46,784 nucleotides of DNA from Candidatus Kerfeldbacteria bacterium CG08_land_8_20_14_0_20_40_16 (GCA_002774635.1 PEXU01000056.1:1-46784); one strand, 5' to 3'; shown: positions 84-44,824, counted from the stretch's first letter. Made by a program: numbers and translations. Notes: a model not told the origin generated them from the sequence alone.

Positions 84-172
84 GCGCCGTTAGTCCCGAT
101 GCCCCTAAGTAAATTCGGGGATCGGGATCCCGACTTCCCCGCAAGGAGAACGTCGGGACTCAGCCAGGTAGA
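84..172 (+). pseudogene. 5' part of a split tRNA-Lys (acceptor strand GCGCCGT), interrupted by tandem palindromes at 94-158
   Basis: GCGCCGT-TAG[insert 94-158]CTCAGCCAGGTAGA matches the D-arm of the intact tRNA-Lys at 679. GCGCCGT is the exact complement of ACGGCGC at 898-904. Confidence 0.8.
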
Positions 173-256
173 CCTGCCCCCGCCCGATTGCTTCGCATTC
201 GAAGCGGGCGGGCGTTTTGCCTTGCGGTTTTAAAAGTTAATTTAAATAAAATACTC

Positions 257-348
257 GGGCGCATAGCTCCCGTCCGCCATCGGCTCGCCGAAGGCGTGCC
301 GGGCGGGCAGCCAGGTAGATCCGCCAGCTGGCGGACTCTTAAGCAAAC
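257..348 (+). pseudogene. Truncated 5' copy of tRNA-Lys(CTT) with two palindrome insertions, directly upstream of the GIY-YIG ORF
   Basis: GGGCGCATAGCT[269-307]CAGCCAGGTAGA[320-335]CTCTTAAGCAAAC. The non-insert segments are identical to the tRNA at 679-755, and the second insert replaces GCAGTTGC. Confidence 0.85.
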
Positions 349-351
349 ATA

Positions 352-606
352 ATGTTTAGTGTTTACGTAGTATACAATAGAATTTATAATAAAATTTACA
401 TTGGGTATACTTCGGATTTAGAAGCGAGATTAAAACGCCATAATGGCATATTAAAAAATAAAAAGAAGTCTTTTACTAGCAAAAATAAAGGTAAATGGGA
501 ACTGATTTATAGTGAACAATCATCCACAAGAAAAGACGCTATAAAAAGAGAAAAAGAATTAAAAAGTTATAGAGGAAGAGAGTTTATTAAAAGCAAGATA
601 AAGTAA
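352..606 (+). CDS. Small stand-alone GIY-YIG nuclease family protein
   Basis: VYVV...IYIGYTSDLEARLKRHN and A..RE..LK motifs; 84 aa. Confidence 0.92.
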   Translation: MFSVYVVYNRIYNKIYIGYTSDLEARLKRHNGILKNKKKSFTSKNKGKWELIYSEQSSTRKDAIKREKELKSYRGREFIKSKIK

Positions 607-615
607 CCGACATTA

Positions 616-644
616 GCCCCCATAGCTCAATTAGTAGATCCGCC
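616..644 (+). pseudogene. Short tRNA 5' fragment ending in a palindrome half (TCCGCC)
   Basis: GCCCCCA-TAGCTCAATTAGTAGA then TCCGCC, the same GTAGA^ junction as at 319/320. Confidence 0.55.
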
Positions 645-678
645 CCTTTTACTCTTTACAAATTTACATATTTTTATC

Positions 679-755
679 GGGCGCATAGCTCAGCCAGGTA
701 GAGCAGTTGCCTCTTAAGCAAACGGTCGGGGGTTCGATTCCCTCTGCGCCCACCA
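679..755 (+). tRNA. tRNA-Lys(CTT)
   Basis: Acceptor GGGCGCA/TGCGCCC, anticodon loop CT-CTT-AA, GGTTCGATTCC T-arm, encoded CCA. Confidence 0.96.
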
Positions 756-835
756 ATAAATTATGTTAAATTCCGAAATATCAAAGCAAGGCAGGCCCGT
801 CCATCCCGCATCTATGGGATGATCGGGCAGGCGGG

Positions 836-908
836 GCAGTTGCCTCTTAAGCGTACGGTCGGGGGTTCAAATCCCTGCCTGCCGGCAGGCAGGCCTCACG
901 GCGCACCA
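836..908 (+). pseudogene. 3' part of the split tRNA-Lys(CTT), with a 20-bp palindrome in the T-stem
   Basis: GCAGTTGCCTCTTAAGCGTACGGTCGGGGGTTCAAATC[CCTGCCTGCCGGCAGGCAGG 874-893]CCTCACGGCGCACCA. Confidence 0.85.
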
Positions 909-1143
909 TAGTAAAGTATCCTGAAAAAAACAGGATATTTTTTGTTACCGACTTTTAGTATCAGGGGAAGGGATTCGAACGGGCAGAAGTAAAGAAGCAG
1001 TTATATTGATTTTAGCTTGCTTTTTCCTTCAGATTATTGTAAGTTACCTTAAGAAAATTGTTCCTAAAAAACCGATATAATAAAGCCAGTGCAAAATAGA
1101 AGCAAGAGATAGAATCATTATTTCTGAAAAAAGGAGAAAGCAC

Positions 1144-1992
1144 ATGAACAACCGAAATTTCCGAAAACTGTTGGAGAATCAATGGTCTCGCGGTAACTTC
1201 GTCTGCGTTGGACTCGACAGCAGGTTGGATAATATTCCAAAGTCCATGCTCCAAAGTGGCAGTGAAAGCAATGTCAGTATCGCTAACACCATCGTCGCGT
1301 TCAACCGAGCAATCGTGGAAGCAACCAAGAACCTTGTGTGTGCCTACAAGCCGAATAGCGCGTTCTATGAAGCGTATGGTGCTGAGGGGCTTGCTGCTTT
1401 ACACCGAACTATCGTTGATATCCACATTCTAGCGCCGGATGTTCCGGTGATCCTCGACGCCAAGCGGGCAGACATTGGCAACACCAATGCGGGCTATGTG
1501 GAAGCAGCATTTGACTTTCTACAAGCAGACGCAATCACAGTTAATCCCTATCTGGGAGCTGAAGCACTTCTGCCATTTCTGGCACGAGCAGAGAAAGGCA
1601 TCATTGTGCTCTGCCGTACTTCCAATCCAGGTGCGGGCGAGTTTCAGGATTTGTCAGTGAACGACGAGCCGCTCTATCTTTTCGTGGCGCGTCGCGTCGC
1701 CAGTGAGTGGAATAAGAACGGCAACTGCGCGCTCGTCGTCGGCGCCACCTATCCTGATGAACTTCGGGAGGTACGCGAAATTGTCGGCGACATGCCAATT
1801 CTCATTCCTGGAATCGGCGCCCAAGGCGGCGATGTAGAGAAGACTGTCTCCGTAGCTAAGAACAGCCGCGGACAGGGCATGATTATCAATAGTTCGCGCG
1901 CCATCATTTTTGCCTCGAAAGACGCAGACTTCGCCGAAGCGGCTCGCCGCGAAACAGAGAAGCTCCGCGACGCAATCAACCAGTACCGATAG
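1144..1992 (+). CDS. pyrF: Orotidine-5'-phosphate decarboxylase
   Basis: CVGLD, YKPNSAFYE, ILDAKRADIGNT, VVGAT, LIPGIGAQGG, INSSR motifs. Confidence 0.96.
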   Translation: MNNRNFRKLLENQWSRGNFVCVGLDSRLDNIPKSMLQSGSESNVSIANTIVAFNRAIVEATKNLVCAYKPNSAFYEAYGAEGLAALHRTIVDIHILAPDVPVILDAKRADIGNTNAGYVEAAFDFLQADAITVNPYLGAEALLPFLARAEKGIIVLCRTSNPGAGEFQDLSVNDEPLYLFVARRVASEWNKNGNCALVVGATYPDELREVREIVGDMPILIPGIGAQGGDVEKTVSVAKNSRGQGMIINSSRAIIFASKDADFAEAARRETEKLRDAINQYR

Positions 1993-2007
1993 GAAGTAGG
2001 TAAAATT

Positions 2008-2745
2008 ATGAACATACTAGAAATGACAGAACGAGAGCTTTTAACACTTGGAGTTGAAGATGTTAGCCGTTCTTTAACTCCTGAAGAGGTCGTACATATA
2101 GCCAAAACTCGCGGAGCATTCTGGGTCTACAACTACGAAGCGGCCAAACAAGGGAATGTTGGAATGCACGCCAGCTTGAAGTCTGGTCTTCACAGCGACG
2201 GCTTTTTCATCTCCCGAATCCTGCTGGCATCAGAAAACATCAGACGAATCATTTCCAGCCAAATGGTTATGAGGATTAAGGAAGCTCTCTGTGAGAATGA
2301 CATGCCCAGTGGCGTTGTGGGCGTCCCAGACGGGGCCACTAAGATTGGCGAGGATATTGGCAAAATGTTCGGGATAAATGTCCTTAAGATGGGAAAGATC
2401 GAGGGTCAAATTGTTTCCTCGTCGCCAGTGGATCCCCAGGAGCGGATTTTAGTGGTTGAGGATTTCTGTACACGGGGAACTGGTTTCACCGAAGCGGTAC
2501 GAGCAATCAAAGCAGCCCAACCTAAAGCACAATTCATACCTTACGACCCAGTAATTATCAATCGCGGAGGGCTGAAAATCATTTTTGTGGAAGGAACCGG
2601 TGAATTTAAAATCTGCCCTGTTGTTGAATGGAGAGTCCAAGATTGGGATCCAGAGAAATGTCCTCTCTGTAAAATGGGTTCTGTTGCCATCAAACCAAAG
2701 GCGACAGACGAAAACTGGAAAGCAATCACCACTTCTCAATTGTAA
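2008..2745 (+). CDS. pyrE: Type I phosphoribosyltransferase, probably orotate PRTase
   Basis: LKSGLHS and PRPP-binding ILVVEDFCTRG motif; directly downstream of pyrF. Confidence 0.75.
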   Translation: MNILEMTERELLTLGVEDVSRSLTPEEVVHIAKTRGAFWVYNYEAAKQGNVGMHASLKSGLHSDGFFISRILLASENIRRIISSQMVMRIKEALCENDMPSGVVGVPDGATKIGEDIGKMFGINVLKMGKIEGQIVSSSPVDPQERILVVEDFCTRGTGFTEAVRAIKAAQPKAQFIPYDPVIINRGGLKIIFVEGTGEFKICPVVEWRVQDWDPEKCPLCKMGSVAIKPKATDENWKAITTSQL

Positions 2746-3027
2746 GCTAAATATCGAACAACCAAAGGGTAAAGCGGCACCCATCAACAAAACAAAGCCG
2801 CTTTTTTCTTTTCTAAAAAGAATCTATCGCTAAAGCAGTAAATTTTCAAAAAAAACAAAAAATCCATCAAAATCCAGTAAATAAAACACCGATCAAAACC
2901 GGTTTTTTGTTTATTTATTGACAGCGGTTCCTAATTCCAGTAAGGTAGAGTAACGCTCTTTTACAAATAACTGAGTACAAAAACTTTAAATCATAAACTG
3001 CTGCACAATTTTTAGGAGGACCCGAGC

Positions 3028-3873
3028 ATGTCTTTTCCCATAGCTCTTATTACCGGTACAGGGATGGATGAACTATTTTCTCCCAAAACCGAGGAAAAAA
3101 CTGGGCTACCTGTCTTTAAAACTGAATTAAAACACGTTGCTAGAACTACTCATGGAGGTCCGGTACGCGCCCAAATTGTCCGAGGTGATGGTCTAGAATT
3201 TCTGTGGCTTGACCGGCACAATTCATCAAAACGGTACTGCTGTCCCCATGAAATCAATTCTGCTGCTTACATGAAGATGCTGTACGACAACGGCGTACAA
3301 TTCATCTTCGCTACCTCCGCAGTGGGCGGCATTAACAGGGCTGGATTTGACCGTTTAGAAGTCGGCTCTTTAGTTATTCCCGAAGACTTTATTGATCTTA
3401 CTAAAGGGTCATATACTTTTAACAATCCAGCTCATACTCATCCTTTAGCCTTCTATCGTCCCCCGGCAGGTCTCTTTTGCCCTGAAATGGCAAAGCTATT
3501 TCCAGAAGCTGATATCCAAAAGGGTGGAATTTACACCAGTGTGCCGGGACCCCGCTACGAAACACGGGCGGAAATTGCAATGATAAAAAACTTTCATCCG
3601 GAGGCACGGCTGTTAGGAATGACCATTCCTCCTGAAGCATCACTGGCTCGAGAGATAGCGGTTCATTATTGTCCGATTTGCATTGTGGCTGATCTGCCCC
3701 TCGAGGAAGGCTCTGTTAATGGGAGTTCCGTTGAAGATGTTGTCCGCCAGGCTAAGAAAGCGGTTCTTACTGCTATCCTCTCGGTAATGCATAAAGTGCC
3801 AGAAGTCAGCGCTGGCTGGCAATGCGACTGCGGCAAGATGGATCCGGTATTTAAAATTTTACAATCCGCCTAA
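3028..3873 (+). CDS. MTAP-family purine nucleoside / methylthioadenosine phosphorylase
   Basis: IALITGTG, RH...PH.IN, SAVGG, GPRYETRAE, GMT..PEA.LARE motifs. Confidence 0.88.
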   Translation: MSFPIALITGTGMDELFSPKTEEKTGLPVFKTELKHVARTTHGGPVRAQIVRGDGLEFLWLDRHNSSKRYCCPHEINSAAYMKMLYDNGVQFIFATSAVGGINRAGFDRLEVGSLVIPEDFIDLTKGSYTFNNPAHTHPLAFYRPPAGLFCPEMAKLFPEADIQKGGIYTSVPGPRYETRAEIAMIKNFHPEARLLGMTIPPEASLAREIAVHYCPICIVADLPLEEGSVNGSSVEDVVRQAKKAVLTAILSVMHKVPEVSAGWQCDCGKMDPVFKILQSA

Positions 3874-3897
3874 CCAAGCGGTTTAGGGGATTATTAT

Positions 3898-3928
3898 GGC
3901 TCGTTCCGAGATGGACGAGCCTTTTTTT
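3898..3928 (+). terminator. Intrinsic terminator
   Basis: GGCTCGTTC/GGACGAGCC hairpin followed by a T tract. Confidence 0.75.
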
Positions 3929-3933
3929 AATAA

Positions 3934-4878
3934 ATGTTTTACAATACAAATATGAAAAAAGAAACGATAACCATAGAACCAAAAGATAAAGGAAAGCGTT
4001 TAGATAAGCTCTTAGCAAAAAAATTTCCCAATTATTCCCGTTCGCACTTCCAAAAATTAATCAAAGAAGCAAAAGTATCGGTTAACGCCCAGAAAATAGC
4101 CGCCCATACTCTCCTTAAAGAAAATGATAAAGTAACTATTGAACCAGTTGAACCAATAAAGATATCCCTAAATCCTGATTCCTCTATCAAATTGGATATT
4201 GTGTTTGAAGACCAAGACTTTCTAATAATTAATAAACCGGCGGGAATGGTGGTACACCCTTCCCAGAGCAATCCCGAGCATACTTTAGTAAATGGTATTC
4301 TTGTCCACAATCCTTCCATCGCCTTAGTTGGCGATAACGCTCTTAGGCCCGGAATTGTCCACCGGTTAGATAAAGAAGTCTCTGGATTGATTGCTGTAGC
4401 AAAAAACCAACTTTCATTTTTACATCTAAAAGAGCAGTTTTTAAAAAGAACAATCAATAAAAAATATCTGGCGCTGGTATATGGAAAACTAAACCAAGCG
4501 GAGGGTAAAATAGATTTGAGTATTGGGCGTTCCAAAAGAAAGCCGTTTCGCATGTCGGTGAAACAAAAAGGAGAAGGGAAGTCCGCTCTCACTTATTACC
4601 GTGTTCTCAAGGAATATAGATATTATTCTTTATTAGAGATTAAAACTAAAACCGGCCGGACTCATCAAATTCGAGTGCATCTTTTCTCCTTTGGTCATCC
4701 GATTGTCGGAGATAAAATATATCAGATAAAAAGTATAAAACCGGCTAAAGATCTTGATCGAATTTTTCTTCATGCTAGCTTTCTTCAATTTACGGGAATA
4801 CAGGGAGAAATAAAAAGGTTTCAGGTTGACTTGTCCAGTGAATTAAAAAATTATCTTATAAAATTAAAAGGCTGTTGA
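3934..4878 (+). CDS. rluD: RluA/RluD-family 23S rRNA pseudouridine synthase with S4 domain (start possibly 3952)
   Basis: RLDK S4 domain, NKPAGMVVHP, IVHRLDKEVSG, TGRTHQIRVH. Confidence 0.92.
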   Translation: MFYNTNMKKETITIEPKDKGKRLDKLLAKKFPNYSRSHFQKLIKEAKVSVNAQKIAAHTLLKENDKVTIEPVEPIKISLNPDSSIKLDIVFEDQDFLIINKPAGMVVHPSQSNPEHTLVNGILVHNPSIALVGDNALRPGIVHRLDKEVSGLIAVAKNQLSFLHLKEQFLKRTINKKYLALVYGKLNQAEGKIDLSIGRSKRKPFRMSVKQKGEGKSALTYYRVLKEYRYYSLLEIKTKTGRTHQIRVHLFSFGHPIVGDKIYQIKSIKPAKDLDRIFLHASFLQFTGIQGEIKRFQVDLSSELKNYLIKLKGC

Positions 4879-4902
4879 CTTAATCAATATTTTTGGTATA
4901 CT
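4875..4902 (+). promoter_or_regulatory. Sigma70-type promoter of rplS/tRNA-Leu
   Basis: TTGACT-N16-TATACT. Confidence 0.65.
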
Positions 4903-4931
4903 GCTATACACTAAGCAATTAAAATATCTAA

Positions 4932-5279
4932 ATGACAGAAGAGAAATCAAAAAAAAAGAATAAAGATATAATAGAAAATATTCCTGACTTAAAACCAGGA
5001 AATGTTGTTCAGGTCTATCAAAAAATCGCTCAAGGTGACAAATTTAGAATTCAAATGTTCGAAGGAGTGGTAATCGCTAAAAAGGGAAAAACAGAGAACG
5101 ATCGAACAATTACCGTCAGAAAAGTATCAGAAGGCGGATACGGAGTAGAAAGAATATTCCCTTTGGCTTCTCCTTTGATTTCCAAAATAACGGTTTTGAA
5201 AAAACCTAAGGTCCGTCGGGCAAAACTTTACTATCTTCGTCATTCACCTCGAGAACTTAAAGAGCTAAAAGAAAAATAA
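4932..5279 (+). CDS. rplS: 50S ribosomal protein L19
   Basis: [31 protein letters not shown]. Confidence 0.97.
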
Positions 5280-5295
5280 GCTTGGGCGATAAAAT

Positions 5296-5383
5296 GCCGC
5301 GGTGGCGGAATTTGGTATACGCGCTACCTTGAGGTGGTAGTGGGGGTAACTCCTTGGAGGTTCAAGTCCTCTCCGCGGCACCA
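5296..5383 (+). tRNA. tRNA-Leu(GAG)
   Basis: GCCGCGG/CCGCGGC acceptor, CTACC-TT-GAG-GT-GGTAG anticodon arm, long variable arm, CCA. Confidence 0.95.
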
Positions 5384-5535
5384 AAACTTTTTTAACCAGG
5401 CGAGTGATTATTAGTAAGCTCGGGCAAGTTAAAGCCAAAGACTTGAAGAGCAGAAGCGAGCAAGTCTCGCGAAGCGGGACTTAAGAGAGCGTCGACGAAT
5501 GCGAGCTGGCGCAGCATTCGGCGCTGCCCGGGACA

Positions 5536-5554
5536 CAAGTCCTCTCCGCGGCAC
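5536..5554 (+). repeat. 19-bp direct repeat of the tRNA-Leu 3' end
   Basis: CAAGTCCTCTCCGCGGCAC is identical to 5363-5381. Confidence 0.85.
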
Positions 5555-5559
5555 TTAAG

Positions 5560-5685
5560 GGGTGCGTAGCTTCCGCCTTCGTCCCGCAGGCGCGGGACCT
5601 CGGCGGACAGGCAGTTGGTTAGACCCGCCCGACTGCCTTGACGGCAGTCAAAGCGGGCAGGGCGCATGGTTTATACCTGCCCGCC
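5560..5685 (+). pseudogene. Palindrome-interrupted 5' copy of tRNA-Val
   Basis: GGGTGCGTAGCT[5572-5611]CAGTTGGTTAGA[5624-5661]GCGCATGGTTTATA[CCTGCCCGCC]; matches the tRNA-Val at 5720. Confidence 0.82.
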
Positions 5686-5719
5686 GCGGCCGTAAAAATC
5701 TTTTAAAAATATTTCAACT

Positions 5720-5796
5720 GGGTTTGTAGCTCAACTGGTTAGAGCGCATGGTTTACATCCATGAGGTTAGGGGTTCAAGTCCTCTCAAACCCACCA
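5720..5796 (+). tRNA. tRNA-Val(TAC)
   Basis: GGGTTTG/CAAACCC acceptor, CATGG-TT-TAC-AT-CCATG, GGTTCAAGTCC, CCA. Confidence 0.96.
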
Positions 5797-5918
5797 GACA
5801 GTAAATTTACAGTTAAAAGATTGAGAGCTGCTTTGGCAGACGGATCTAAAAGGTCATCCCGCGCACCACTAGTTTAGCCCTCCCTTTCTGACGGGTTTAA
5901 GTCAACTAATAACAAAGC

Positions 5919-6164
5919 ATGGGAGTAATTATCTTAGGAATAATTGGAATTGTCATCGGCGCTGTTTTTGTCATAAAAACAGAGTGGTTTTTGGATTTCT
6001 TTGGTCGAATTGAATGGGCCGAGCGACATTTGGGTACCGAGGGGGGAAGCCGTCTTTTTTACAAAATAATCGGAATTGGGACAATTGTTTTAAGCTTTAT
6101 GTTGATGACCGGACTGTTCCAGTTGCTTTTAAGAAAAATATTCTCGTCAGGGAGGATTAATTAA
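5919..6164 (+). CDS. Small two-TM hypothetical membrane protein
   Basis: Two hydrophobic helices flanking FGRIEWAERHLG; 81 aa. Confidence 0.8.
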   Translation: MGVIILGIIGIVIGAVFVIKTEWFLDFFGRIEWAERHLGTEGGSRLFYKIIGIGTIVLSFMLMTGLFQLLLRKIFSSGRIN

Positions 6165-6167
6165 TAA

Positions 6168-6271
6168 GGGCCCTTAGTCCCGATGTCCCTCTGAGGCGGG
6201 AATCGGGATCCCGATTTCGCCTATGGCGAATATCGAGACTAAGTTGGTTAGAACACCACATTTGTCCCGAC
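6168..6271 (+). pseudogene. Palindrome-interrupted 5' tRNA copy (Ala-like) upstream of tRNA-Ala
   Basis: GGGCCCT-TAG[6178-6238 tandem TCCCGAT..ATCGGGA]CTAAGTTGGTTAGAACACCACATTTG[TCCCGAC]. Confidence 0.7.
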
Positions 6272-6323
6272 TTACAATAATATATAGAATTAAAGAAGTG
6301 GAGGATTCTCGAAAATTTATAAA

Positions 6324-6399
6324 GGGCCGATAGCTCAGCTGGTAGAGCATCCGGTTTGCATCCGGAAGGTCTGGGGTTCGAATCCCCATCGGTCCACCA
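6324..6399 (+). tRNA. tRNA-Ala(TGC)
   Basis: GGGCCGA/TCGGTCC acceptor with G3:U70, TCCGG-TT-TGC-AT-CCGGA, CCA. Confidence 0.96.
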
Positions 6400-6601
6400 A
6401 ATACCTTTTACCGAGGTATTTTTGTTTTATACTATTGAATTATTTTTTATATTATCTATAATTAGATTGCAATTTTATTTTGTTTCTGGTAAAATAAAAT
6501 TATTAAAGTGAATAAAATATCTTGATTTATTTTCAAAAGTGATTTATTATTATAATATCTTTTCAATAAAAAAACATTTTTGCCGAGAGGAGGTGAATTA
6601 A

Positions 6602-6700
6602 ATGGCAAAAAAGAGAAAGAAAGTAGTAAAAAAAAGAAAAGTAGCAAAAAAAAGAAGAGTTGCTAAGAAGAAAAAAGGTGGTCGCAAAAGAAAGAGATAA
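6602..6700 (+). CDS. 32-aa lysine/arginine-rich peptide (MAKKRKKVVKKRKVAKKRRVAKKKKGGRKRKR)
   Basis: Strong SD GGAGGTG just upstream, TATAAT at 6551, hairpin at ~6721-6766; below the ORF-track cutoff. Confidence 0.75.
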   Translation: MAKKRKKVVKKRKVAKKRRVAKKKKGGRKRKR

Positions 6701-6780
6701 TCTATTCTATTTGCGATAGAAAAAGCCTTCTGCTTCCCATTTCTACGGGATAATAGAGGGCTTTTTCGTTTTGATTAATT

Positions 6781-8994
6781 TTAACTATCTACTCTAGTAA
6801 TTAGAGATGCTTCGCCGTTTTGGACTACTAGGTCACTGCCTTTTATTTTTAGTTCCAGGATGTGAAGATAAACGCCTTTTCCTTCGGGAGCTTTGAGAAT
6901 AAGCTGAAATGTGCCAATGTCTCCTGATTTCACTGCTTTTTCTTTTAGAGAAAACTGCCCTTGGGTATTTTCCCAAGAGCTATCTTTAAATCGGCTTGTT
7001 TTTTTACCCAAATCATAAACATTAAGTATCAGGTTTTGATCCCAGGTACCAATTCCGGTGTTTTCAAATTTAACAGTTACCGGTATTTTCCAATAATTAA
7101 GAACGGCTAAAGGGATATTCTGCGAGACTAGCTTCGCCTGATAGGGTGAATCGATTCGCGTAACGGAATGATTTTCTTCTTGGATAATTTCATTCTTACC
7201 AATCAAACGATAAATATTTTTGAAAATCCCTAGCTCGCGCGGTGCTTTAAGTTTGAGAGTGAAAGTTGCTATCTTATTTGTTTTAACCTCTGTTTCTTCA
7301 AAATCTAATTGACCATACTGATCATTCCAACTTTTATCATAAAACCGACTGATTTGATCATCTAGGTCATAAATATTTAATCTTACTTCCCCTTTTTTCC
7401 AAGAATTGATTCCTTCATTTCTAAATTCAAATGTTACTAATTGCGTATCATTAAGAAACATCGCCAGGTTAATACTACGGTTTTTCAATTTAGCAGCGAA
7501 AGGCAAGTTAGTAATCTTCACCGTTACTTGAAATTCAGATTTTTTCTGAATTTTATTATCAAAGGCAAGTGAGAAACTTTCCGATGTTTCTAATAGATCA
7601 ATAGGAGCTTTTAAGTTAAATGTGAATCTTCCTATTTCGCCTGGTGCTACATTAGGAGAATCCAAATAAGCTACTATTGATTCTGCTTCCCAATCAGATC
7701 CTTTCAAAACCGATGGAGGATTTTTAGCAATAACGTAAGGTTGATTAATTCCGTAATTGTGCCAAGTGACATTTCCCTCATTTTTAAATTCCACCCAAAA
7801 CTGCTTCTCTTTACCAGTATCTATTGCGAGAGACTGCTTGCTTTGCTGAACATAAGTCGCTTTGATAATAGGATCCGCAATTCCGTTAAGAACATCATAC
7901 TTTTTTTGGGCCAAATCGCGTATTGTTCCCAGTTTCTGGTACAAGTTTGTTCCTGGGCAGGCGGTACAGTCTAGATCCTTATGACCAACAATATGAGGAT
8001 AAGTGTTATCAATCATGTATCCTTCTCCCTTGGGTTCAATTCCAAACTCTTTTCCTTTTACGGCGATTAAATCGGCTAAAGCGTTCTTCACTTTGCTGTT
8101 TAGGGTTAAGCCATCTTCATAGTTGCCCAAGACAGCAATACCAATCGTTCCCTTGTTAAAATCAGCTTCATATTGCTCGCCGCCGAATCGGAATCGGGCA
8201 CAGATTTTAGTGCGATACACATGCGCTCCGATCACTCCGTCGCCACCATAACGACCTTCGTAAATATTACCATTTTGATCAATTAAGTAATTATAACCAA
8301 TATCCCCCCATCCTAAGACCGTGGAATGCCAGTAGTAAACCCCCCTCACTGCTGCTGCGGGATTGTCGCCGCCAGTACTGCCCGCGGTGTGGTGAATCAC
8401 AAATTTTTCCGGTCTTTGATAAGAAGCAGGCCAAATTTCCTTATCCGAACCGCTAAAACGCCAGTCTTCGTCCGCCCCCCATTCAGAGCGAGGAATAATC
8501 TCTAGACTATCCGCCGCCTGAGCCTTGGAAAAAAGGAAGTCAAAAATATTTCTTTTCTTAAAATTGCTTCCCGAAGATTCTCCTAGATAAATCAACTTGA
8601 TGTTTTTTAAATTAGCTGACGAGTCAACTTTGTACTGAAGCTCGGTCCCTTTATTTGCCACAATCGGATCGGTGGAATAATACCAGCCATCCCTTTCAAG
8701 GTAATCTTCAATTTGCTGCCACTTGCTCCATCCGCTGGAATCATGATAACGGAGACTAATTCCGACTGTTTCTCTTCCTTGCCAGGCAACACCAAAGACG
8801 TTAAATTTAAAATCAGTTTTTAAAACAGAAGATAAATATTCGCCGTTGCTCACTACCATTGCGCTATCTCGAATTTCTCTCCGCTCTATTTTCGCTTTTC
8901 CCGAGGCAGTCCCTTGTGAACACAAAAAAACAGTTGACAACAAAGCAACTGCTCCGATAGTAAAAAATTTGGTTAGTTTAAGACCTTTTTTCAT
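6781..8994 (-). CDS. Secreted N-acetylmuramoyl-L-alanine amidase (PGRP/Amidase_2) with C-terminal NBR1-Ig-like repeats
   Basis: Signal peptide; PRSEWGA, VIHHTAG, GWGDIGYNYLI, GHKDL..TACPG; repeated F.N.G..W...GE..F.F.L.AP modules. Confidence 0.88.
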   Translation of the reverse strand: MKKGLKLTKFFTIGAVALLSTVFLCSQGTASGKAKIERREIRDSAMVVSNGEYLSSVLKTDFKFNVFGVAWQGRETVGISLRYHDSSGWSKWQQIEDYLERDGWYYSTDPIVANKGTELQYKVDSSANLKNIKLIYLGESSGSNFKKRNIFDFLFSKAQAADSLEIIPRSEWGADEDWRFSGSDKEIWPASYQRPEKFVIHHTAGSTGGDNPAAAVRGVYYWHSTVLGWGDIGYNYLIDQNGNIYEGRYGGDGVIGAHVYRTKICARFRFGGEQYEADFNKGTIGIAVLGNYEDGLTLNSKVKNALADLIAVKGKEFGIEPKGEGYMIDNTYPHIVGHKDLDCTACPGTNLYQKLGTIRDLAQKKYDVLNGIADPIIKATYVQQSKQSLAIDTGKEKQFWVEFKNEGNVTWHNYGINQPYVIAKNPPSVLKGSDWEAESIVAYLDSPNVAPGEIGRFTFNLKAPIDLLETSESFSLAFDNKIQKKSEFQVTVKITNLPFAAKLKNRSINLAMFLNDTQLVTFEFRNEGINSWKKGEVRLNIYDLDDQISRFYDKSWNDQYGQLDFEETEVKTNKIATFTLKLKAPRELGIFKNIYRLIGKNEIIQEENHSVTRIDSPYQAKLVSQNIPLAVLNYWKIPVTVKFENTGIGTWDQNLILNVYDLGKKTSRFKDSSWENTQGQFSLKEKAVKSGDIGTFQLILKAPEGKGVYLHILELKIKGSDLVVQNGEASLITRVDS

Positions 8995-28281: not shown

Positions 28282-29316
28282 ATGATTATTCTCGGAATCG
28301 AAACATCCTGTGATGAAACCGCCGCCGCGATTGTTCAGAATAAAAGCGAGCGCTTTGAGATACTTTCCAGCGTTGTTTCTTCGCAAGTGGATATCCATGC
28401 CAAAACCGGCGGCATTGTTCCAGAAGTAGCCGCCCGGGAGCATATTAAGAATATACTGCCGATTATTGACCAAGCGCTTAAAAAAGCAAGTATGGATTAT
28501 CACAAAATTGACGCGATTGCAGTTACTGCCGGACCCGGTCTAATTACTTCTCTGCTAGTAGGAGCAGAAACCGCTAAAGTTCTTTCCTATACCTGGAATA
28601 AACCGTTAACTGCCATAAATCACTTAGCGGCTCATATTTATGCTAACTTTATTTCCGCCAGCTGGCGGACCAAAATTCAATTCCCCCTACTAGCTTTAGT
28701 GGTATCAGGAGGACACACTGAGCTGGTTTTAATGAAGAAGCATCTGGATTACCAAGTGATCGGTCAAACCAGAGATGATGCGGCTGGAGAAGCTTTTGAT
28801 AAAGTGGCCAAGCTTTTGAATCTTGGTTACCCGGGCGGCCCGATTATTTCTAAATTAGCAAAGGATGGGGATCGTAAGGCGGTTGATCTGCCTCGGCCGA
28901 TGATTAAAGAAAATAATTTTGACTTTAGTTTTGCCGGTTTAAAAACCGCTGCTCTATATAAAATTCAATCTGGCAAATACAACTTAAAAGATAAAAAAAC
29001 AATTGCTGATTTTTGCGCTTCTTTTGAGCAAGCAGCGATTGATGTTTTAGTAGAAAAAACAATCAAAGCGGCCAAAAAATATAATGTAAAATCAGTCTTA
29101 CTTTCTGGAGGAGTGGCCGCTAACGAACTGCTTAGGGAATCTTTAAAGACAAAGATTAAAAAAGAACTTCCTTTCTCCCACCTCTCACTCCCCACTCCTA
29201 AACTTTGTACTGACAATGCCACCATGATTGCGGCAATAGGATATTATTATGCTGTAAAAAAGGGTTTCACTCCATGGCAAAAAATAGAAGTAGATCCTAT
29301 CTGGCAGCTTGGTTAA
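28282..29316 (+). CDS. tsaD: tRNA N6-threonylcarbamoyltransferase TsaD
   Basis: ILGIETSCDET, GGIVPEVAAREH, GPGL, NHL.AH, VSGGHT, DDAAGEAFDK, GGVAAN, TDNA.MIA. Confidence 0.98.
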   Translation: MIILGIETSCDETAAAIVQNKSERFEILSSVVSSQVDIHAKTGGIVPEVAAREHIKNILPIIDQALKKASMDYHKIDAIAVTAGPGLITSLLVGAETAKVLSYTWNKPLTAINHLAAHIYANFISASWRTKIQFPLLALVVSGGHTELVLMKKHLDYQVIGQTRDDAAGEAFDKVAKLLNLGYPGGPIISKLAKDGDRKAVDLPRPMIKENNFDFSFAGLKTAALYKIQSGKYNLKDKKTIADFCASFEQAAIDVLVEKTIKAAKKYNVKSVLLSGGVAANELLRESLKTKIKKELPFSHLSLPTPKLCTDNATMIAAIGYYYAVKKGFTPWQKIEVDPIWQLG

Positions 29317-34607: not shown

Positions 34608-35056
34608 AAAAAATGGCGTTGTTGTGGTGAACGCCATGTCGCTAAGGTGCATATTCATTAATAACACTCAACCTTATGTCTCGGTCGAATCCCGCCTGCC
34701 TTGCCGGTAGGCAGGCGTAGGCGGGACTTATTTTTGTACTGGGAACCCAATAGTTTCCCAACATTTCTGTCAGTTCCCCCATTAGGTACAAAAATAAATG
34801 TTGTCCGTTTGTCACTCCGCGCGGGCCCAAGGTCAAGGACTTACACCCGTACCCGCTTTGCGCTAGACCTTTATCCCTCTGTCTCTATCACACATTCAAG
34901 AGGTGCTCAACCCAAATGGTCTAGATCAGCCCGGCAACTAATACGCCAGGCCTCAGTTTCCGGTCCCATACCTTCACCGAAGGTATGGGAATGAGTCCCG
35001 GCGTTTAGTCTTTAGACTAAACGATTATCTTTGTGTTTCTTAATTCTTAAGGATCT
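34608..35056 (-). ncRNA. Candidate large structured non-coding RNA (~450 nt)
   Basis: Minus-strand TTGACT-N16-TATAAT (35090-35063), many nested stems, terminator 34636-34608, no credible ORF. Confidence 0.6.
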
Positions 35057-39746: not shown

Positions 39747-39818
39747 AGGCGGATCCGCCTCGGGCGGAGACTGCGTCCTGCTTTCGCCGAAGCGAAGCTC
39801 CGGCTTCGCGCAGGCAGG
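39747..39818. repeat. Cluster of GC-rich palindromes
   Basis: AGGCGGA-TCCGCCTCGGGCGGA and CCTGC...GCGAAGC/GCTTCGC...GCAGG. Confidence 0.75.
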
Positions 39819-40434: not shown

Positions 40435-40464
40435 AAAGGACAATCCCTTATCGCCGGCAAACAT

Positions 40465-41235
40465 ATGTATTTTTATCTTTACGATTCTTTTTTAAATAAT
40501 AAGAAATATACGTCTATCCTCGCTAAGATAGAAAATCGTCTTATCGACCTAGGAATAAATGGCAAGATTGAAAAATTGAGTGTCTTAAAAAGCGCCCAAG
40601 AAGTTGTAGAAGACAACATCAAGAGTGGAGCGGATACGATTGTCGCCGTAGGAAACGAAGCAACTTTTGCCAAAATAGTCCCCCTGGTTGCGAAACAGAA
40701 CGGTATTACCTTGGGTTTTATCCCAGTTGTGGAAAACGCCATAGCTAAATTTTTAGGGATCCCTCTCGGAGAAAAAGCTTGTGATATTCTGTCTTCCCGT
40801 TTGATTGAAAGAATAGATCTAGGCAAAGCGAATGATTTTTATTTTTTTTCGGAGTTGAATATTCCAGAATCAAAAGATTTAACTCTCGAATGCAACGGCG
40901 GGCATTTCAGGATTAATTCTACAAATCACAGCAATATTATTCAGATTTGCAATTTAACTTATACTCCTTTAAAGAGGGAGGTCGGATCAAGAAAATTTTG
41001 TGATCCAAGAGATGGGTTGCTGGAAGCAATCTTCACTCCTACTACTAGCTTTTTGGGTAGAAGTCGTCTCGATCTCAATAAGCGAAGCGTATTCCCAATT
41101 AGAAAAATTAAAATAAAAAGTAGTAATTCCCTCTCCCTTATCGCTGATGGAGAAACCGTAATAAAAACCCCGGTGCTAGTACAGGTGGCGCCTAAAAAAC
41201 TTAAATTAATCGTGGGAAAGGAAAGAAAATTTTGA
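40465..41235 (+). CDS. Diacylglycerol kinase family-like protein
   Basis: TIVAVGNEAT, LGFIP, AKFLGIP, IDLG, DG.LE, ADGE. Confidence 0.8.
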   Translation: MYFYLYDSFLNNKKYTSILAKIENRLIDLGINGKIEKLSVLKSAQEVVEDNIKSGADTIVAVGNEATFAKIVPLVAKQNGITLGFIPVVENAIAKFLGIPLGEKACDILSSRLIERIDLGKANDFYFFSELNIPESKDLTLECNGGHFRINSTNHSNIIQICNLTYTPLKREVGSRKFCDPRDGLLEAIFTPTTSFLGRSRLDLNKRSVFPIRKIKIKSSNSLSLIADGETVIKTPVLVQVAPKKLKLIVGKERKF

Positions 41236-41334
41236 TTCATCGCTTAAGTTAGTAATGAAAAACCAAGACTAAAAACAAGAATCTATCCTTAGGTGATAGA
41301 TTTTTTTGCTGCTTAACAATACTAATTTTAAAGG

Positions 41335-41363
41335 TTGACCAATAATCAATATTAGACTATGCT
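41335..41363 (+). promoter_or_regulatory. Sigma70-type promoter of infB
   Basis: TTGACC-N17-TATGCT. Confidence 0.55.
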
Positions 41364-41390
41364 GAATAAATAATCAAAAACATCCTTTCA

Positions 41391-43193
41391 ATGAACCAGC
41401 AAGAATCTCAAACTAAAGATAGTGATAAAAAAACTATTGCCATTCCGGAAACAATCGTAATTAAAGAACTGGCTGAGAAAATGAATTTGCCAGTTACTGA
41501 GGTTATTGCGGAACTAATGAAAAACGGGATTATGTCTTCTATGAATGAATCCATTGACTTTGAAACCGCCGGAATTATCGCCGAGGATCTTGGCTTTGCG
41601 ATTAAGAAAAGCGAGGAAGATAAAGTTCAGGAAGATAAAGTCAAGATTTTAGAGAAAGTCTTAGAAAAAGATCAGCAAAAATCCGAAACCAGGCCTCCGG
41701 TAGTGGTGGTAATGGGGCACGTTGATCACGGAAAAACCAAGCTTTTAGACGCTATTAGAGAAACAAATATAGTAGAAAAGGAAGCGGGGGGAATAACCCA
41801 ATCGATTGGAGCGTATCAAATAGAGAATAAGGGGGGGTTGATCACCCTGATTGACACGCCAGGACACGAAGCCTTTTCTGCCATGCGTTCTCGAGGGGCG
41901 CGGGTAGCTGATATCGCTATTTTAGTAGTGGCAGCAGACGACGGGGTACAACCCCAAACCAAAGAGGCTTACGAAATTATCAAGAAAGCCAGGCTTCCCT
42001 TTTTGGTTGCTATTAATAAAATAGACAAGCCCGAGGCGAACGTGGAAAAAGCGAAAAAGGAACTATCTGAAATTGGAATCGTACCGGAAGAATGGGGTGG
42101 AAAAACCATCTTCAGCGAAATATCAGCCAAACAAAAAACTGGTATCTCAGAATTAATTGATATGGTCTTGTTGATAGCGGAAATGGAAAAGAAAAATATA
42201 GTAGCGAATTACCAACGTGAGGCAATGGGAACAATTATTGAATCGCATATTGACAAAGGAGCCGGCCCTCAAGCGACCGCCTTGATTCAAACGGGCACCC
42301 TGCATTTATCTGACTATATCATTGTCGGAGACATCCACGGCAAGGTAAAAGCGATGAAAGACTGGAAAGGGGAACTAGTAACCAGCGCCGAGCCGTCCAA
42401 ACCAGTTCAAATCTGGGGTTTAAAAGATGCCCCCAAAGTAGGCGATATTTTGTATGTAACCAAAGATCGGACCGAAATTAAATCCTTAGTAAAGAAACAT
42501 CGTCTTCATTCTCTTCAAAAGAAAATGGATCAGCAAACTGCCCAGAAGAAAACGGACGATGAGCAAGAGAAAAAAAAGGAATTTAACATTGTCTTAAAGA
42601 CCGATACCTTCGGCTCGCAAGAAGCAATTTGTGAATCGTTAGATAAACTACAACATCCTGAAGTGAAAGTGGTGATTACCTCTAAGGGGTTAGGAAACAT
42701 TACGGAAAAAGATATTATTCAGTCCGACTCCAACGATTCCAGCTTAGTCGGATTCAATGTGGTATTGACCCCCCAAGCTCAGGAAATTCAGAAAGATCGC
42801 CAAGTAGAAATAAAAATATTTACGATTATTTATGAATTGATTGATTATATCAAGGAAGAACTGGAAAAAATATTATCCCCGGAAATCATCTTTGTTGATT
42901 TAGGGAAAATAGAAATTCTAGCTTTATTCAAAGAGGAAAAGGAATACCAGATCATTGGAGGAAAAGTATCCAAAGGAAAAGTAGAAAATGACGTTTTGGT
43001 AAGAATTATGAGGAAGGGGGAAGAAATAGGAAAAGGTAAAATAGTCCAACTTCAATCAGAAAAGAAAAATGTGAGGGAAGTACTGAAAGATTCAGAATGC
43101 GGTCTTAAAATAAAATCGGATATAGCTATTCAAGCAGGCGACGTTTTAGAATTATACAAAGAAGAACAAAAAAATCGTAAACTAGAATTTTAA
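41391..43193 (+). CDS. infB: Translation initiation factor IF-2 (short form)
   Basis: [36 protein letters not shown]. Confidence 0.97.
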
Positions 43194-43323
43194 CTTTTCC
43201 TTTCCAGCTGTGGTGAGACTGGATGGATAAAAAAAATAAGATTAAAATCCAGAGAAAGCCCGCTGGAATATCTAATTGACAGTTCACTCTAGAATTTAAC
43301 TCCTTTTACCTTGAAAAGGGGCA

Positions 43324-43662
43324 ATGCCTTCCAAACGCATTAAACAAATTAACGAACTGATCAAAGAAGAGGTTAGCTCTATTATCGCCAAAGAGATAGA
43401 ACTTCCTCCTAGTTGCTTAGTGACAATAACTAAGGTAGAAACAAGCGCTGATTTAAAGCATGCCAATATTTGGTTATCCATTCTCCCAACCGATTATCAA
43501 CAAAAGGGGCTCCAATTTATATCAGCTCAGGCGGGGAATATCCAAAGAATCTTCAACCCACGCTTAAAGACCCGGAATACCCCCAAAATCAGCTTTAGAG
43601 TTGACGATTCGGCGGAAAAAGCAGAGCATATTAATCAACTACTTGACACACTTAAGAAGTAG
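43324..43662 (+). CDS. rbfA: Ribosome-binding factor A
   Basis: R....ELI.EEVS, VTIT.V..S.DL, TP.I.F..D.S. Confidence 0.92.
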   Translation: MPSKRIKQINELIKEEVSSIIAKEIELPPSCLVTITKVETSADLKHANIWLSILPTDYQQKGLQFISAQAGNIQRIFNPRLKTRNTPKISFRVDDSAEKAEHINQLLDTLKK

Positions 43663-43733
43663 CGATAAAATGGCCTGTTTTACCTATGAATACCAACCTA
43701 GGATAAAACGTATTTTAAAGCAAAAGTGTTTTT

Positions 43734-44705
43734 ATGTATCCCAATGCCTCCCTTTATGAAGATATTTTTCAAAGACTCTCTGAATCTCAGAGGACTCTTT
43801 TAGTTGCTCATCAAAACCCGGACGGTGACGCGATCGGCTCGGTATTAGCGCTCTCCCAATTTTTGGATAAAACCATTGGTGAAAACCATATCTTTTGCTT
43901 AACAATCCCCGCTCCTTCTTTCAGTTTTTTGCCAACGATAGAAAGAATCAAAACCAATCCTTTAATTCTAAAAAAAATCGAATTTGATACTATTGTGGTT
44001 TTGGATTCAGGGGACCTGGAATACAGCGGGATTAAGCCGCATCTCCAAGAGCTTAAGTATTCACCTCAAATTTTGAACATTGATCATCATCCTACTAACG
44101 ATTATTTTGGTCATATTAATCTAGTAGAAACCGATGCCGCTTCCACTACCGATATCCTGTTTCGGATTTTCAACCACAACCGTTTTAGAATCAGTAAAGA
44201 TATTGCTACCTGCCTGCTTACCGGAATTATTACCGACACCGGCAGTTTCTCTAATCTAGCCACTACCCCCCAGGCTATTTCTAACGCTTCCGAACTGCTA
44301 ATTAATGGCGCTCGGGCTAAGGATATAATAAATAATGCCCTGACCAAGCAGTCTATTGGAGTGTTAAAATTATGGGGCCGCGCTTTTTCCCGTTTAATAA
44401 AAAACAACCATACTAATATTGCGATTACCGTCGTTACTCAAAAGGATTTTAAGGAGTGTAAGGTGGAAAACGAAAGCGCCGAGGGAATTGCCAATTTTTT
44501 GAATAATTTGAACGGGGCTAAAGCGGTCCTGGTGCTCAAAGAACAATCAGATGGGACAATAAAAGGGAGCCTTAGAACAACCCGAGATAACATAGACGTA
44601 TCAAAATTAGCTCGAGTTTTAGGAGGAGGCGGTCATAAAAAAGCCGCCGGCTTCACTATTAAAGGGAAGATAGAAGAAACTAAGAGCGGCTGGAAAATCG
44701 TTTAG
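43734..44705 (+). CDS. nrnA: DHH-family nanoRNase / PAP phosphatase NrnA
   Basis: HQNPDGDAIGS, IDHH, DTG.F, SLR, GGGGHKKAAG. Confidence 0.9.
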   Translation: MYPNASLYEDIFQRLSESQRTLLVAHQNPDGDAIGSVLALSQFLDKTIGENHIFCLTIPAPSFSFLPTIERIKTNPLILKKIEFDTIVVLDSGDLEYSGIKPHLQELKYSPQILNIDHHPTNDYFGHINLVETDAASTTDILFRIFNHNRFRISKDIATCLLTGIITDTGSFSNLATTPQAISNASELLINGARAKDIINNALTKQSIGVLKLWGRAFSRLIKNNHTNIAITVVTQKDFKECKVENESAEGIANFLNNLNGAKAVLVLKEQSDGTIKGSLRTTRDNIDVSKLARVLGGGGHKKAAGFTIKGKIEETKSGWKIV

Positions 44706-44709
44706 AAGA

Positions 44710-44737
44710 TTGACAAATTCCTAAATTGTCTTATACT
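44710..44737 (+). promoter_or_regulatory. Sigma70-type promoter of clpP
   Basis: TTGACA-N16-TATACT. Confidence 0.65.
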
Positions 44738-44762
44738 GACAATTACCATTAATTCTAATAAG

Positions 44763-44801
44763 TTCCGACGTAAAGTCGGAATTCCGACCGAAGTGTCGGA
44801 A
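44763..44801. repeat. Tandem TTCCGAC...GTCGGAA palindromes in the clpP leader
   Basis: Two adjacent hairpins flanked by AG and CT, like those at 94-158 and 6178-6238. Confidence 0.75.
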
Positions 44802-44824
44802 CTAATAAAGCTAACAACCTAAAC

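Follow-up and report, generated by a model that had tools for sequence, protein, structure and literature searches.

What becomes of a tRNA gene into which short GC-rich palindromes insert, at which positions do they enter, and what moves them? These questions are raised by a 46,784-nucleotide stretch of DNA, here called the window, from Candidatus Kerfeldbacteria bacterium CG08_land_8_20_14_0_20_40_16 (GCA_002774635.1 PEXU01000056.1:1-46784), in which broken copies of tRNA genes, interrupted by such palindromes, lie beside intact tRNA genes and genes for small GIY-YIG nucleases. A preliminary description of the window had named a number of the insertion junctions, and every one of them is present, within 0 to 2 bases. 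What that first reading missed is that intact tRNA genes are nested inside broken ones. Partial copies adjoin or enclose about 20 of the 34 intact tRNA genes of this genome, and the junctions in the broken copies concentrate in the D arm and in the anticodon and T loops. The explanation toward which we lean, with confidence a little above an even chance, is that tRNA cassettes replace resident tRNA genes while hairpin repeats mobilised in trans insert at folded single-stranded DNA.

The genome (G000 below; the window is its contig C7) comprises 1.13 Mb in 62 contigs, with 39.7% G+C and an estimated completeness of 96%, and comes from aquifer and groundwater metagenomes. It was compared with G001, a genome of the same genus, and with a panel of 61 genomes of the class, the relatives being 0.7-1.4 Mb in size. 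Five tRNA genes (Lys, Leu, Val, Ala, Glu) occur in the window, where an Rfam scan finds these five and nothing else; group I introns are therefore absent there. Regions 49-726, 5359-5767 and 5740-6369 are matched, with 0-1 differences, by contigs from four other aquifer runs, and the recurrence of the same structures in four runs means that the broken copies are not assembly artefacts. Contig joints seen across these runs trace to tRNAs of other organisms or to a G001-like relative.

The most elaborate nest, at the left of the window, is built of tRNA-Lys copies and consists of the following features.

84-172, plus strand: outer disrupted tRNA-Lys(CTT), the older copy, 5' part, positions 1-24 (k-mer map and sequence)
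173-835, plus strand: large insert, located in the outer tRNA-Lys at its D stem (23/24); left end CCTGCCCCCGCCCGAT.., right end ..ATCGGGCAGGCGGG
257-348, plus strand: second broken tRNA-Lys copy, positions 1-45
352-606, plus strand: gene for a small single-domain GIY-YIG nuclease, 84 amino acids (open reading frame, ORF; PF01541, E 1e-14)
616-646, plus strand: third tRNA-Lys 5' fragment (CATAGCTCAATTAGTAGA), ending in AGA and followed by the half palindrome TCCGCCCC; an orthologous fragment occurs in G001
679-755, plus strand: intact tRNA-Lys(CTT), nested within the older copy (ARAGORN, Rfam)
836-908, plus strand: outer tRNA-Lys 3' part, positions 25-76 (spliced alignment)

The acceptor strand of the outer 5' part, GCGCCGT, is complementary to ACGGCGC at 897-903; 84-172 and 836-908 are one gene cut in two, with 173-835 as the insert. 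The cargo of the insert is the second Lys copy, the GIY-YIG gene, the third fragment and the intact tRNA-Lys, which has three partial Lys copies upstream and one 3' part downstream. Smaller insertions interrupt the broken copies themselves. A double-hairpin element at 94-158 splits the outer 5' part at site 10/11 (TAG^CT, 93/94, the caret marking the point of insertion), and the T stem of the outer 3' part (873/874) holds the 20-nucleotide (nt) palindrome CCTGCCTGCCGGCAGGCAGG at 874-893. The second copy contains a 38-nt palindrome, 270-307, at site 12/13 (GCT^CAG, 268-269/270), and TCCGCCAGCTGGCGGA at 320-335, which follows AGA (319/320) and stands in place of about 5-8 nt of tRNA. Junctions after AGA are confirmed at 172/173, 319/320 and 638/639 in the Lys copies and at 5623/5624 in a tRNA-Val copy. 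G001 has a broken Lys copy of its own, in which AGA is followed by TCCGCCAG, 24 nt and CTGGCGGA, that is, by the 16-mer of the window with an extra insert at its centre.

In three further nests of the window an intact tRNA gene follows a broken 5' half.

5560-5675, plus strand: ancestral tRNA-Val(TAC), 5' half, broken in the anticodon loop (spliced alignment, synteny with G001)
5676-5868, plus strand: insert with a new, divergent, intact tRNA-Val(TAC) at 5720-5796; left end CCTGCCCGCC, right end GGCAGACGG
6168-6264, plus strand: ancestral tRNA-Ala(TGC), 5' half, broken in the anticodon loop (6264/6265)
6324-6399: new intact tRNA-Ala
26513-26577, plus strand: tRNA-Glu(TTC) copy, 5' half, with its anticodon-loop end at 26547, followed by palindromes TCCGCCTACGGCGGA and CCCACCGCAGGCGGG
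26595-26873, plus strand: gene for a small GIY-YIG nuclease, 92 amino acids (ORF; PF01541, E 4e-16)

The old tRNA-Val 5' half carries palindromes at 5572-5611 (site 12/13; GCT^CAG, 5571/5572) and 5624-5661 (site 23/24) and ends at an anticodon-loop junction, 5673-5675/5676; the insert with the new tRNA-Val is followed by a decayed 3' remnant of the old gene, ending ..CCGCGCACCA at 5868. A double-hairpin element, 6178-6238, occupies site 10/11 of the old tRNA-Ala (TAG^CT, 6177/6178). At the Glu nest the 3' end of the GIY-YIG gene overlaps the intact tRNA-Glu at 26852-26926.

The direction of replacement can be read from G001. Window positions 4300-7600 are syntenic with its contig C6 at 75-86% identity. 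At the corresponding spots G001 has a single uninterrupted tRNA-Val, whose acceptor stem resembles that of the broken copy in G000, and a single clean tRNA-Ala, as against the split old copy and divergent new tRNA of G000. The clean G001 genes identify the broken copies as residents and the intact copies as newcomers. The G001-like uninterrupted form is also found in a contig from aquifer run X4 (joint 5550>5726), and occupied and empty alleles of one site, as known for Seg-type homing endonucleases, are present in related genomes. Elsewhere in G000 the nest design recurs at Ile (C4), Pro-GGG (C1), Pro-CGG (C49), Arg-TCT and Arg-CCG (C12), Thr-CGT (C34), Leu-CAG (C54) and Glu-CTC (C45), in addition to Val-TAC in the window, and partly at others. 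GC-rich inverted repeats of the form CCYGCC..GGCRGG often mark the junctions: YCYGCC stands directly at the break in 13 of about 18 broken 5' copies, and GGCRGG precedes the 3' part in at least 5 of 8 cases. A palindrome of 31 nt, found without cargo at C45:4942 and C47:9623, is similar to both ends of the tRNA-Leu(CAG) cassette on C54.

Insertion points were collected from broken tRNA copies throughout G000 by spliced alignment and sequence inspection, giving a hand-curated list of 48 junctions; a blastn-short search of tRNAs against the genome missed most of the fragments. Rows that match by chance, with 16-19 matched bases, were omitted from the curated count (upstream of Leu_caa, Arg_ccg, Gln_ctg and Ser_tga, downstream of Thr_tgt and Trp). 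The junctions are distributed over the cloverleaf as follows.

Site 10/11: 9 junctions
Sites 11/12-12/13: 4 junctions
D loop: 7 junctions
Site 23/24: 6 junctions
Anticodon loop: 11 junctions
Positions 43-45: 2 junctions
T loop: 7 junctions
T stem: 2 junctions
Acceptor stem: 0 junctions
Anticodon stem: 0 junctions

That the same few tRNA positions are hit, as the preliminary description had claimed, holds for the whole genome: of the 48 junctions, 44 are in one of three places, the D arm, the anticodon loop and the T loop, where a share of 0.52 of the junctions visible to the filter would be expected (P = 3e-9), a distribution far from uniform. The anticodon and T stems together hold two junctions where 16.6 are expected, and exact site 10/11 accounts for nine (P = 1e-7). 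These nine breaks are in nine broken copies that differ in sequence and whose neighbours are genes for Lys, Ala, Ile, Val, Arg (two), Thr, Tyr and Met; eight of the inserts are double hairpins and the ninth, in Met, is another element of 39 nt. Not all events are independent, the two Pro copies being alike in their D-loop palindromes and the two Arg copies in their double hairpins. The earlier claim of clean insertion without target duplication is likewise borne out, with a reference gap of 0 for most internal inserts in spliced alignments; about 6 of about 24 replace 3-10 nt of tRNA, and no duplication was found in these alignments. Since the broken copies are dead, selection on tRNA function cannot explain the pattern, which reflects where insertion happens.

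One interrupted gene has no intact counterpart in the assembly. The only tRNA-Phe(GAA), at C6:50111-50220, has perfect stems, but its T loop holds a GC-rich palindrome of 35 nt; the tRNA-Phe at the syntenic position of G001 is uninterrupted and rather different. It came to light when each GC-ended hairpin was excised in silico (32,055 trials) and ARAGORN was applied, which gave one new call, a poor Phe model that inspection by eye resolved into this gene. Copies with several inserts cannot be restored by excising a single hairpin.

Two other kinds of repeat occur near tRNA copies or GIY-YIG genes. Short tandem words of the GAAAATTGAAAATT type, at window 26488-26510, C45:~1590-1640 and on C51 upstream of 11553, precede two broken tRNA-Glu copies and a GIY-YIG gene without a nearby tRNA. 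A repeat of about 150 nt (GGGATTCGAACGGGCAGAAG ... GCTGCCCRGGACA), after which comes a copy of the 3' end of a tRNA beginning with its T loop, lies at window 5399-5554, with further sites at 960-990, C47:8571-8715 and C1:~2100-2210, and is retained at the syntenic tRNA-Leu of G001; it may be a further T-loop-inserting element or a small RNA.

The inserts at site 10/11 belong mostly to a family built of two abutting hairpins with stems TCCCGAY/RTCGGGA, often with an extra small palindrome within a loop. The word at its internal junction, TCGGGATCCCGA, occurs 7 times in G000 versus 0.0 expected and in 13 of the 61 genomes of the class, and the reversed control gives no hits. Of the eight copies at 10/11, found beside Lys, Ala, Ile, Val, two Arg, Thr and Tyr genes in tRNA copies of different sequence, six lie in TAG^CTCA or TAG^CTAA and two in TAG^TTCA. 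The other double hairpins of G000 are one copy interrupted by a contig end and one TTCCGA variant outside any tRNA.

44763-44801, unstranded: non-tRNA double hairpin, TTCCGAC-GTAAA-GTCGGAA + TTCCGAC-CGAAGT-GTCGGAA

This last element is situated between AAG and CTAAT in the spacer that precedes a ClpP-like gene; CTAATAA on either side of it is the only flanking direct repeat found. Both of its loops recur in G054 on TCCCGAC stems, and close variants occur in G008 and G058, genomes of different families; in G058 double hairpins are also nested inside the loops of double hairpins.

The flanks qualify the earlier statement that this family prefers AG^CT. AG stands to the left of the double hairpin in 9 of 9 cases in G000 and 11 of 20 in relatives (20 of 29 in total), while the other flanks vary and show no duplication. 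Among the 20 double hairpins of relatives, 8 have AG^CT flanks, 5 of these being TAG^CTCA of tRNA-like sequence and 3 lying outside tRNAs; the remaining 12 are elsewhere. A preceding G is found in 14 and a following C in 16. Double hairpins favour flanks that extend the palindrome (G..C, AG..CT). The AG^CT preference is real, then, but the tetranucleotide is no general target, and the preference comes mainly from tRNA site 10/11 (TAG^CTCAG).

Palindromes are also abundant beyond the broken tRNA copies. G000 contains 593 GC-rich hairpins, compared with 282 in block-shuffled sequence. Within 400 bp of a tRNA, in 2.0% of the genome, there are 65, compared with 17 in the shuffle, a 5.5-fold concentration. 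The association with tRNAs is not exclusive: in an unselected sample comprising 63 TCCGCC copies at 60 loci of 11 other genomes, an intact tRNA lies within 150 bp at 10 of the 60. Only 18 of 72 family palindromes in G000 fall inside ORFs of at least 120 amino acids, although such ORFs make up 87% of the genome; most copies are away from tRNAs, and nearly all stand in non-coding sequence. The palindrome TCCGCC-N3-4-GGCGGA is present in 53 of the 61 relatives, at 0-105 copies each, with 0-2 hits for the reversed control.

Copies of the same 16-, 20- and 38-mers turn up in unrelated places, at differing tRNA positions and in further genomes. TCCGCCAGCTGGCGGA has two copies in G000 and occurs in G029, G010 and G025; CCTGCCTGCCGGCAGGCAGG is found at C24:18979 as well as in the window, and twice in G018. 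An element of 38-39 nt is about 90% alike, by a count made on the printed sequences, at Lys 12/13 (C7:270) and Met 10/11 (C6:38236), and 89% in G002. Multiple copies, precise insertion and sharing across loci and genomes agree with the original view of these palindromes as non-autonomous elements mobilised in trans. Among the 63 sampled TCCGCC palindromes, 23 abut a second small hairpin and 10 sit atop a flanking stem of at least 5 bp, compared with 1.4% of control positions. This excess of flanking stems and the inserts nested at the centres of palindromes suggest that part of the copies land preferentially on exposed tips and loops of hairpins.

A few palindromes of the window stand apart from its tRNA nests.

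28654-28669: second exact copy of TCCGCCAGCTGGCGGA, inside a 347-codon open frame
34691-34727, unstranded: nested GC-rich palindrome TCCCGCC..TGCCTTGCCGGTAGGCA..GGCGGGA with a T run, in a spacer away from tRNAs
39754-39768, unstranded: TCCGCCTCGGGCGGA palindrome, non-coding, with an identical copy in like flanks at C17:14783

The 347-codon frame, in which TCCGCCAGCTGGCGGA lies 26 codons before a conserved ..VVSGGHTEL.. motif, is presumably TsaD-like, and the copy there may be a chance match or an insertion into a variable loop.

For the tRNA complement as a whole, ARAGORN reports 35 genes in G000 and Rfam 34; a 90-nt tRNA-Asn(ATT) called by ARAGORN on C12 is without Rfam support. About ten expected tRNAs are missing from the assembly, with no genes for Asp, Cys, Asn, Gly-GCC/UCC, Pro-UGG and others, and the tRNA nests probably break the assembly. 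An element of the form GATTTTTCAT-(A/G)TCCCGC..GCGGGA(T/C)-GCGC, at or near three contig ends (C25:39-56, C53:90-107 and C53:8201-8218), is probably the end of a longer, assembly-breaking repeat.

Which protein might act on these repeats? G000 encodes seven small GIY-YIG ORFs of 75-112 amino acids (PF01541, E 5e-10 to 2e-18). In the two from the window the Pfam match spans nearly the whole length, and there is no joined DNA-binding domain. Sequence matches in PDB are weak and mixed (I-TevI 0.008, UPF0213 0.03, SLX1 0.06), and an NCBIfam search gave sub-threshold matches to a group I intron endonuclease model only. tRNA nests house five of the seven genes, and in four of these five a palindrome stands no more than about 60 nt upstream. 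A sixth, at C51:11300-11620 (84 amino acids), is away from tRNAs and is enclosed by a perfect 13-bp inverted repeat, CCCCACACCAATA/TATTGGTGTGGGG; this unit resembles a minimal insertion sequence. A decayed GIY-YIG gene at C24:34521-34800 has a hairpin with a 15-bp stem (CCCCGTTAGAAATTT..AAATTTCTAACGGGG) in its 3' part. At the 20 top-scoring GIY-YIG loci in 20 other genomes, a tRNA is found within 400-bp flanks in 8, and in 5 of these it begins within 70 nt past the ORF end; 4 of the 5 have a GC-rich hairpin upstream. On the minus strand of G018:C5:92538-93538 a partial tRNA-Leu with palindrome is followed by a GIY-YIG gene, an intact tRNA-Leu and another partial tRNA-Leu with the same palindrome, the unit being bracketed by a 34-nt direct repeat made of CACGA, the 20-nt palindrome CCTGCCTGCCGGCAGGCAGG and CTCAAAATC.

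The other enzymes to consider are Y1 transposases. G000 has eight matches to PF01797 at seven loci, of which one is IS200-like (about 150 amino acids, C8:5550-6002, with its own end hairpins); the other six loci, on six other contigs, are ORFs of about 175-199 amino acids with weak matches, two matches falling in one ORF. No TCCGCC, CCYGCC or TCCCGA palindrome was found in the 300-bp flanks of the seven loci. The suggestion that small GIY-YIG proteins drive the palindromes is in keeping with the presence of their genes in the nests and with a correlation of counts (rho 0.49, 61 genomes), but Y1 counts do nearly as well (rho 0.40). GIY-YIG and Y1 counts correlate with each other (rho 0.53), and both also correlate with genome size. 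The link between GIY-YIG genes and palindromes is circumstantial.

The explanation we favour starts from what is directly observed: the anatomy of the nests, the site bias, insertion without duplication, families shared across genomes, and empty syntenic sites. A cassette would consist of a complete tRNA gene, often bounded by CCYGCC(C)GCC .. GGCGGGCRGG inverted repeats and sometimes accompanied by a small GIY-YIG gene. Its point of entry would be a resident gene for a tRNA of the same amino-acid type, for the most part at the anticodon loop or within the D arm; the newcomer would assume the function, and the split resident would remain as dead 5' and 3' parts. In a linked process, GC-rich palindromes of 15-70 bp, double hairpins included, would spread in trans with precise insertion and no target duplication. 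Their preferred targets would be exposed folded single strands, namely the loops and D arm of tRNA genes, palindrome tips, the tips of terminator-like hairpins, and positions abutting hairpins. Dead tRNA copies, being under no selection, accumulate inserts and so reveal the site preference. We infer that the target is recognised as folded single-stranded DNA; the Ssn nucleases discussed below suggest by analogy that the cutter may be the small GIY-YIG nuclease, working in trans, and host repair or recombination would complete the insertion.

Several results weigh against this explanation. The junction list is curated by hand, and the block filter is blind to breaks in the first and last ~8 tRNA positions. 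Apart from the near equality of the GIY-YIG and Y1 correlations, individual genomes fit poorly: G058 has 34 palindromes and 6 double hairpins with just 4 GIY-YIG matches, and G034 has 7 GIY-YIG matches and zero TCCGCC palindromes. Double hairpins of relatives are usually not adjacent to GIY-YIG genes, and among 11 GIY-YIG proteins, 30-54% identical, the hairpin family bears no relation to protein similarity. The published SRM pattern of the Ssn hairpin repeats gives 6 hits in G000 and 0-4 in 10 simulated genomes; no small GIY-YIG gene and no tRNA is found within 500 bp of any of the 6. To our knowledge GIY-YIG nucleases form no covalent intermediate, and such an enzyme cannot paste DNA by itself. 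Location at a hairpin tip applies to just 16% of the sampled palindromes and to 0 of 11 in G000. No variants with and without a palindrome within the strain were found in contigs of the four DNA runs, contigs being prone to drop rare variants. A bolder form of the idea, in which hairpin elements and even whole tRNA genes spread without any transposase, inserted into loops of folded single-stranded DNA hairpins that a GIY-YIG protein of about 90 amino acids cuts and host repair seals, strikes us as speculative and on balance improbable.

Two rival explanations bear on the enzyme and on the origin of the palindromes, and we regard both as distinctly unlikely. The elements could be REP-like and moved as single strands by the Y1 proteins of about 190 amino acids (RAYT/IS200-type), with TAG^ as the cleavage word. 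The eight PF01797 matches, the correlation of counts, the AG to the left of every double hairpin in G000 and of 11 of 20 in relatives, and the resemblance of duplication-free insertion beside a short fixed word to IS200/IS605 would all fit, yet the seven Y1 loci of G000 lack these palindromes at their flanks, the number of double hairpins does not follow that of Y1 genes (rho 0.13), and G053 (42 palindromes), G054 (23 plus 3 double hairpins) and G038 (22) have no Y1 match at all. Alternatively, a tRNA-directed GIY-YIG homing nuclease could cut at fixed positions, the palindromes being made in situ by fold-back or template-switch repair. The same positions do recur with loop sequences that differ, several inserts have taken the place of 5-10 nt of tRNA, the Met copy on C6 holds TCCCGCG-GA-CGCGGGA, derived from its own acceptor strand CGCGGGA, and the GIY-YIG enzyme SegB of phage T4 recognises a conserved motif of the tRNA T loop (PMC2330249). 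Scars formed de novo are nevertheless unlikely, because identical or near-identical 16- to 39-mers are shared across unrelated sites and other genomes; moreover, both loop sequences of the double hairpin are kept across genomes of different families, and most palindromes in other genomes lie outside a tRNA context.

The remaining rivals concern function. Selection for structural signals around tRNA operons, such as terminators, processing sites or insulators, would accord with the several copies that stand on AT-rich stems with T runs after them and with the low share of family palindromes in long ORFs. A terminator has no need to interrupt tRNA sequence at many positions, however, and neither the range of 0-105 copies among related genomes nor the patchy occurrence of the double hairpin suits a selected signal, which makes this account very improbable. 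We give still less credence to the notion that the interrupted tRNAs are functional and that the hairpins are excised from transcripts like introns. The sole tRNA-Phe, perfect but for its T-loop palindrome, is the case in its favour. The tRNA splicing endonuclease domain PF01974 has no match in G000 at its 96% completeness, with four archaeal controls positive, and of the other interrupted copies nearly all are truncated, with several inserts each and an intact copy alongside; removal at the RNA level is unlikely on both counts. Mitochondrial hairpin elements, too, are reported not to be removed from transcripts (PMC2800124). For Phe itself an intact but unassembled gene is the simpler reading, because about ten expected tRNAs are missing from the assembly.

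Repetitive extragenic palindromes (REP), NTS/dRS3 repeats, Rickettsia palindromic elements and the GC clusters of mitochondria all pose the long-standing question of how short palindromic repeats spread. A rare neutral read-out of insertion points is offered by dead tRNA copies: the original tRNA sequence being known base by base, each point can be read exactly, and in G000 they prove to be few in number and bound to structure. The nests also show that incoming copies can overwrite the majority of the tRNA genes of an ultra-small bacterium where they stand, with consequences for the annotation of tRNA genes, for assemblies that break at tRNA loci and for the use of tRNA genes as markers of descent. 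Should spread without a transposase prove true, tRNA genes, hairpin-ended themselves, would be both favoured target and cargo, and foreign copies could replace over half of a genome's tRNA genes in place.

Several known systems invite comparison. REP/BIME sequences are short multi-copy extragenic palindromes, probably mobilised in trans by RAYT, a Y1 protein, with recognition of single-stranded DNA hairpins and no target duplication; IS200/IS605 elements insert without duplication next to a short fixed word. We know of no REP that targets positions of the tRNA cloverleaf. The present elements are likewise short multi-copy palindromes without target duplication, but the Y1 genes of G000 lack them at their flanks, and palindrome-rich relatives lack Y1. 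The GC clusters of fungal mitochondria are comparable hairpin elements. Repetitive hairpin elements described from mitochondria are GC-rich single, double or triple hairpins in a small AT-rich genome, tandem and patchy, located in spacers and in variable parts of genes, with no known mobilising enzyme (PMC2800124). They are organellar whereas ours are bacterial, the likeness is one of form, and the available part of that account reports neither fixed tRNA positions nor nested tRNA genes (PMC2800124).

Miniature inverted-repeat transposable elements differ in their target-site duplication, which was not found at clean inserts in G000. SegB of phage T4 has a separate DNA-binding part. It is a free-standing GIY-YIG homing endonuclease encoded in a tRNA cluster, whose site includes a conserved T-loop motif; it cuts at a 27-bp recognition sequence, leaving 2-nt 3' protruding ends, and spreads with neighbouring tRNA genes (PMC2330249). 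A GIY-YIG gene among tRNA genes is common to both cases, but here the proteins are bare nuclease domains of 84-92 amino acids, and palindromes and split tRNAs do not appear in the available description of SegB (PMC2330249). In archaeal tRNA disruption, tRNA genes have non-canonical interruptions, and a 5' fragment may be left upstream of a gene-restoring element that encodes a recombinase (PMC3293823). Interruption at several positions and an upstream 5' fragment are shared features; the archaeal inserts, however, are spliced out by a splicing endonuclease, whose domain was not found in G000.

The closest published system is that of the Ssn nucleases and their NTS repeats (PMC11893778), alike in outline, of which the proteins and palindromes described here are at most candidate members. 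Ssn nucleases are single-domain GIY-YIG proteins of about 94 amino acids that bind hairpin repeats and cut only single-stranded DNA beside them (Chenal et al. 2025, PMC11893778), and their authors liken the arrangement NTS-ssnA-NTS to an insertion sequence and to REP/RAYT (PMC11893778). Common to both are a small single-domain GIY-YIG protein of ~85-95 amino acids, many short GC-rich hairpin repeats that are mostly intergenic and often beside the nuclease gene, and repeat numbers that vary greatly among related genomes (PMC11893778). The degenerate SRM pattern, by contrast, does not pick out the palindromes of G000, and the paper nowhere contains the word tRNA (PMC11893778), whereas here repeats and genes are tied to tRNAs, with fixed cloverleaf positions and nested replacement. 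In a literature search that left aside the supplementary genome and motif lists of Chenal et al., we found no account of tRNA-targeted palindromes, tRNA-nested GIY-YIG genes or nested tRNA replacement in these bacteria. What G000 adds to the known systems of hairpin repeats and small GIY-YIG proteins is a sharply defined map of insertion sites and the anatomy of the nests, which together make the mechanism testable.

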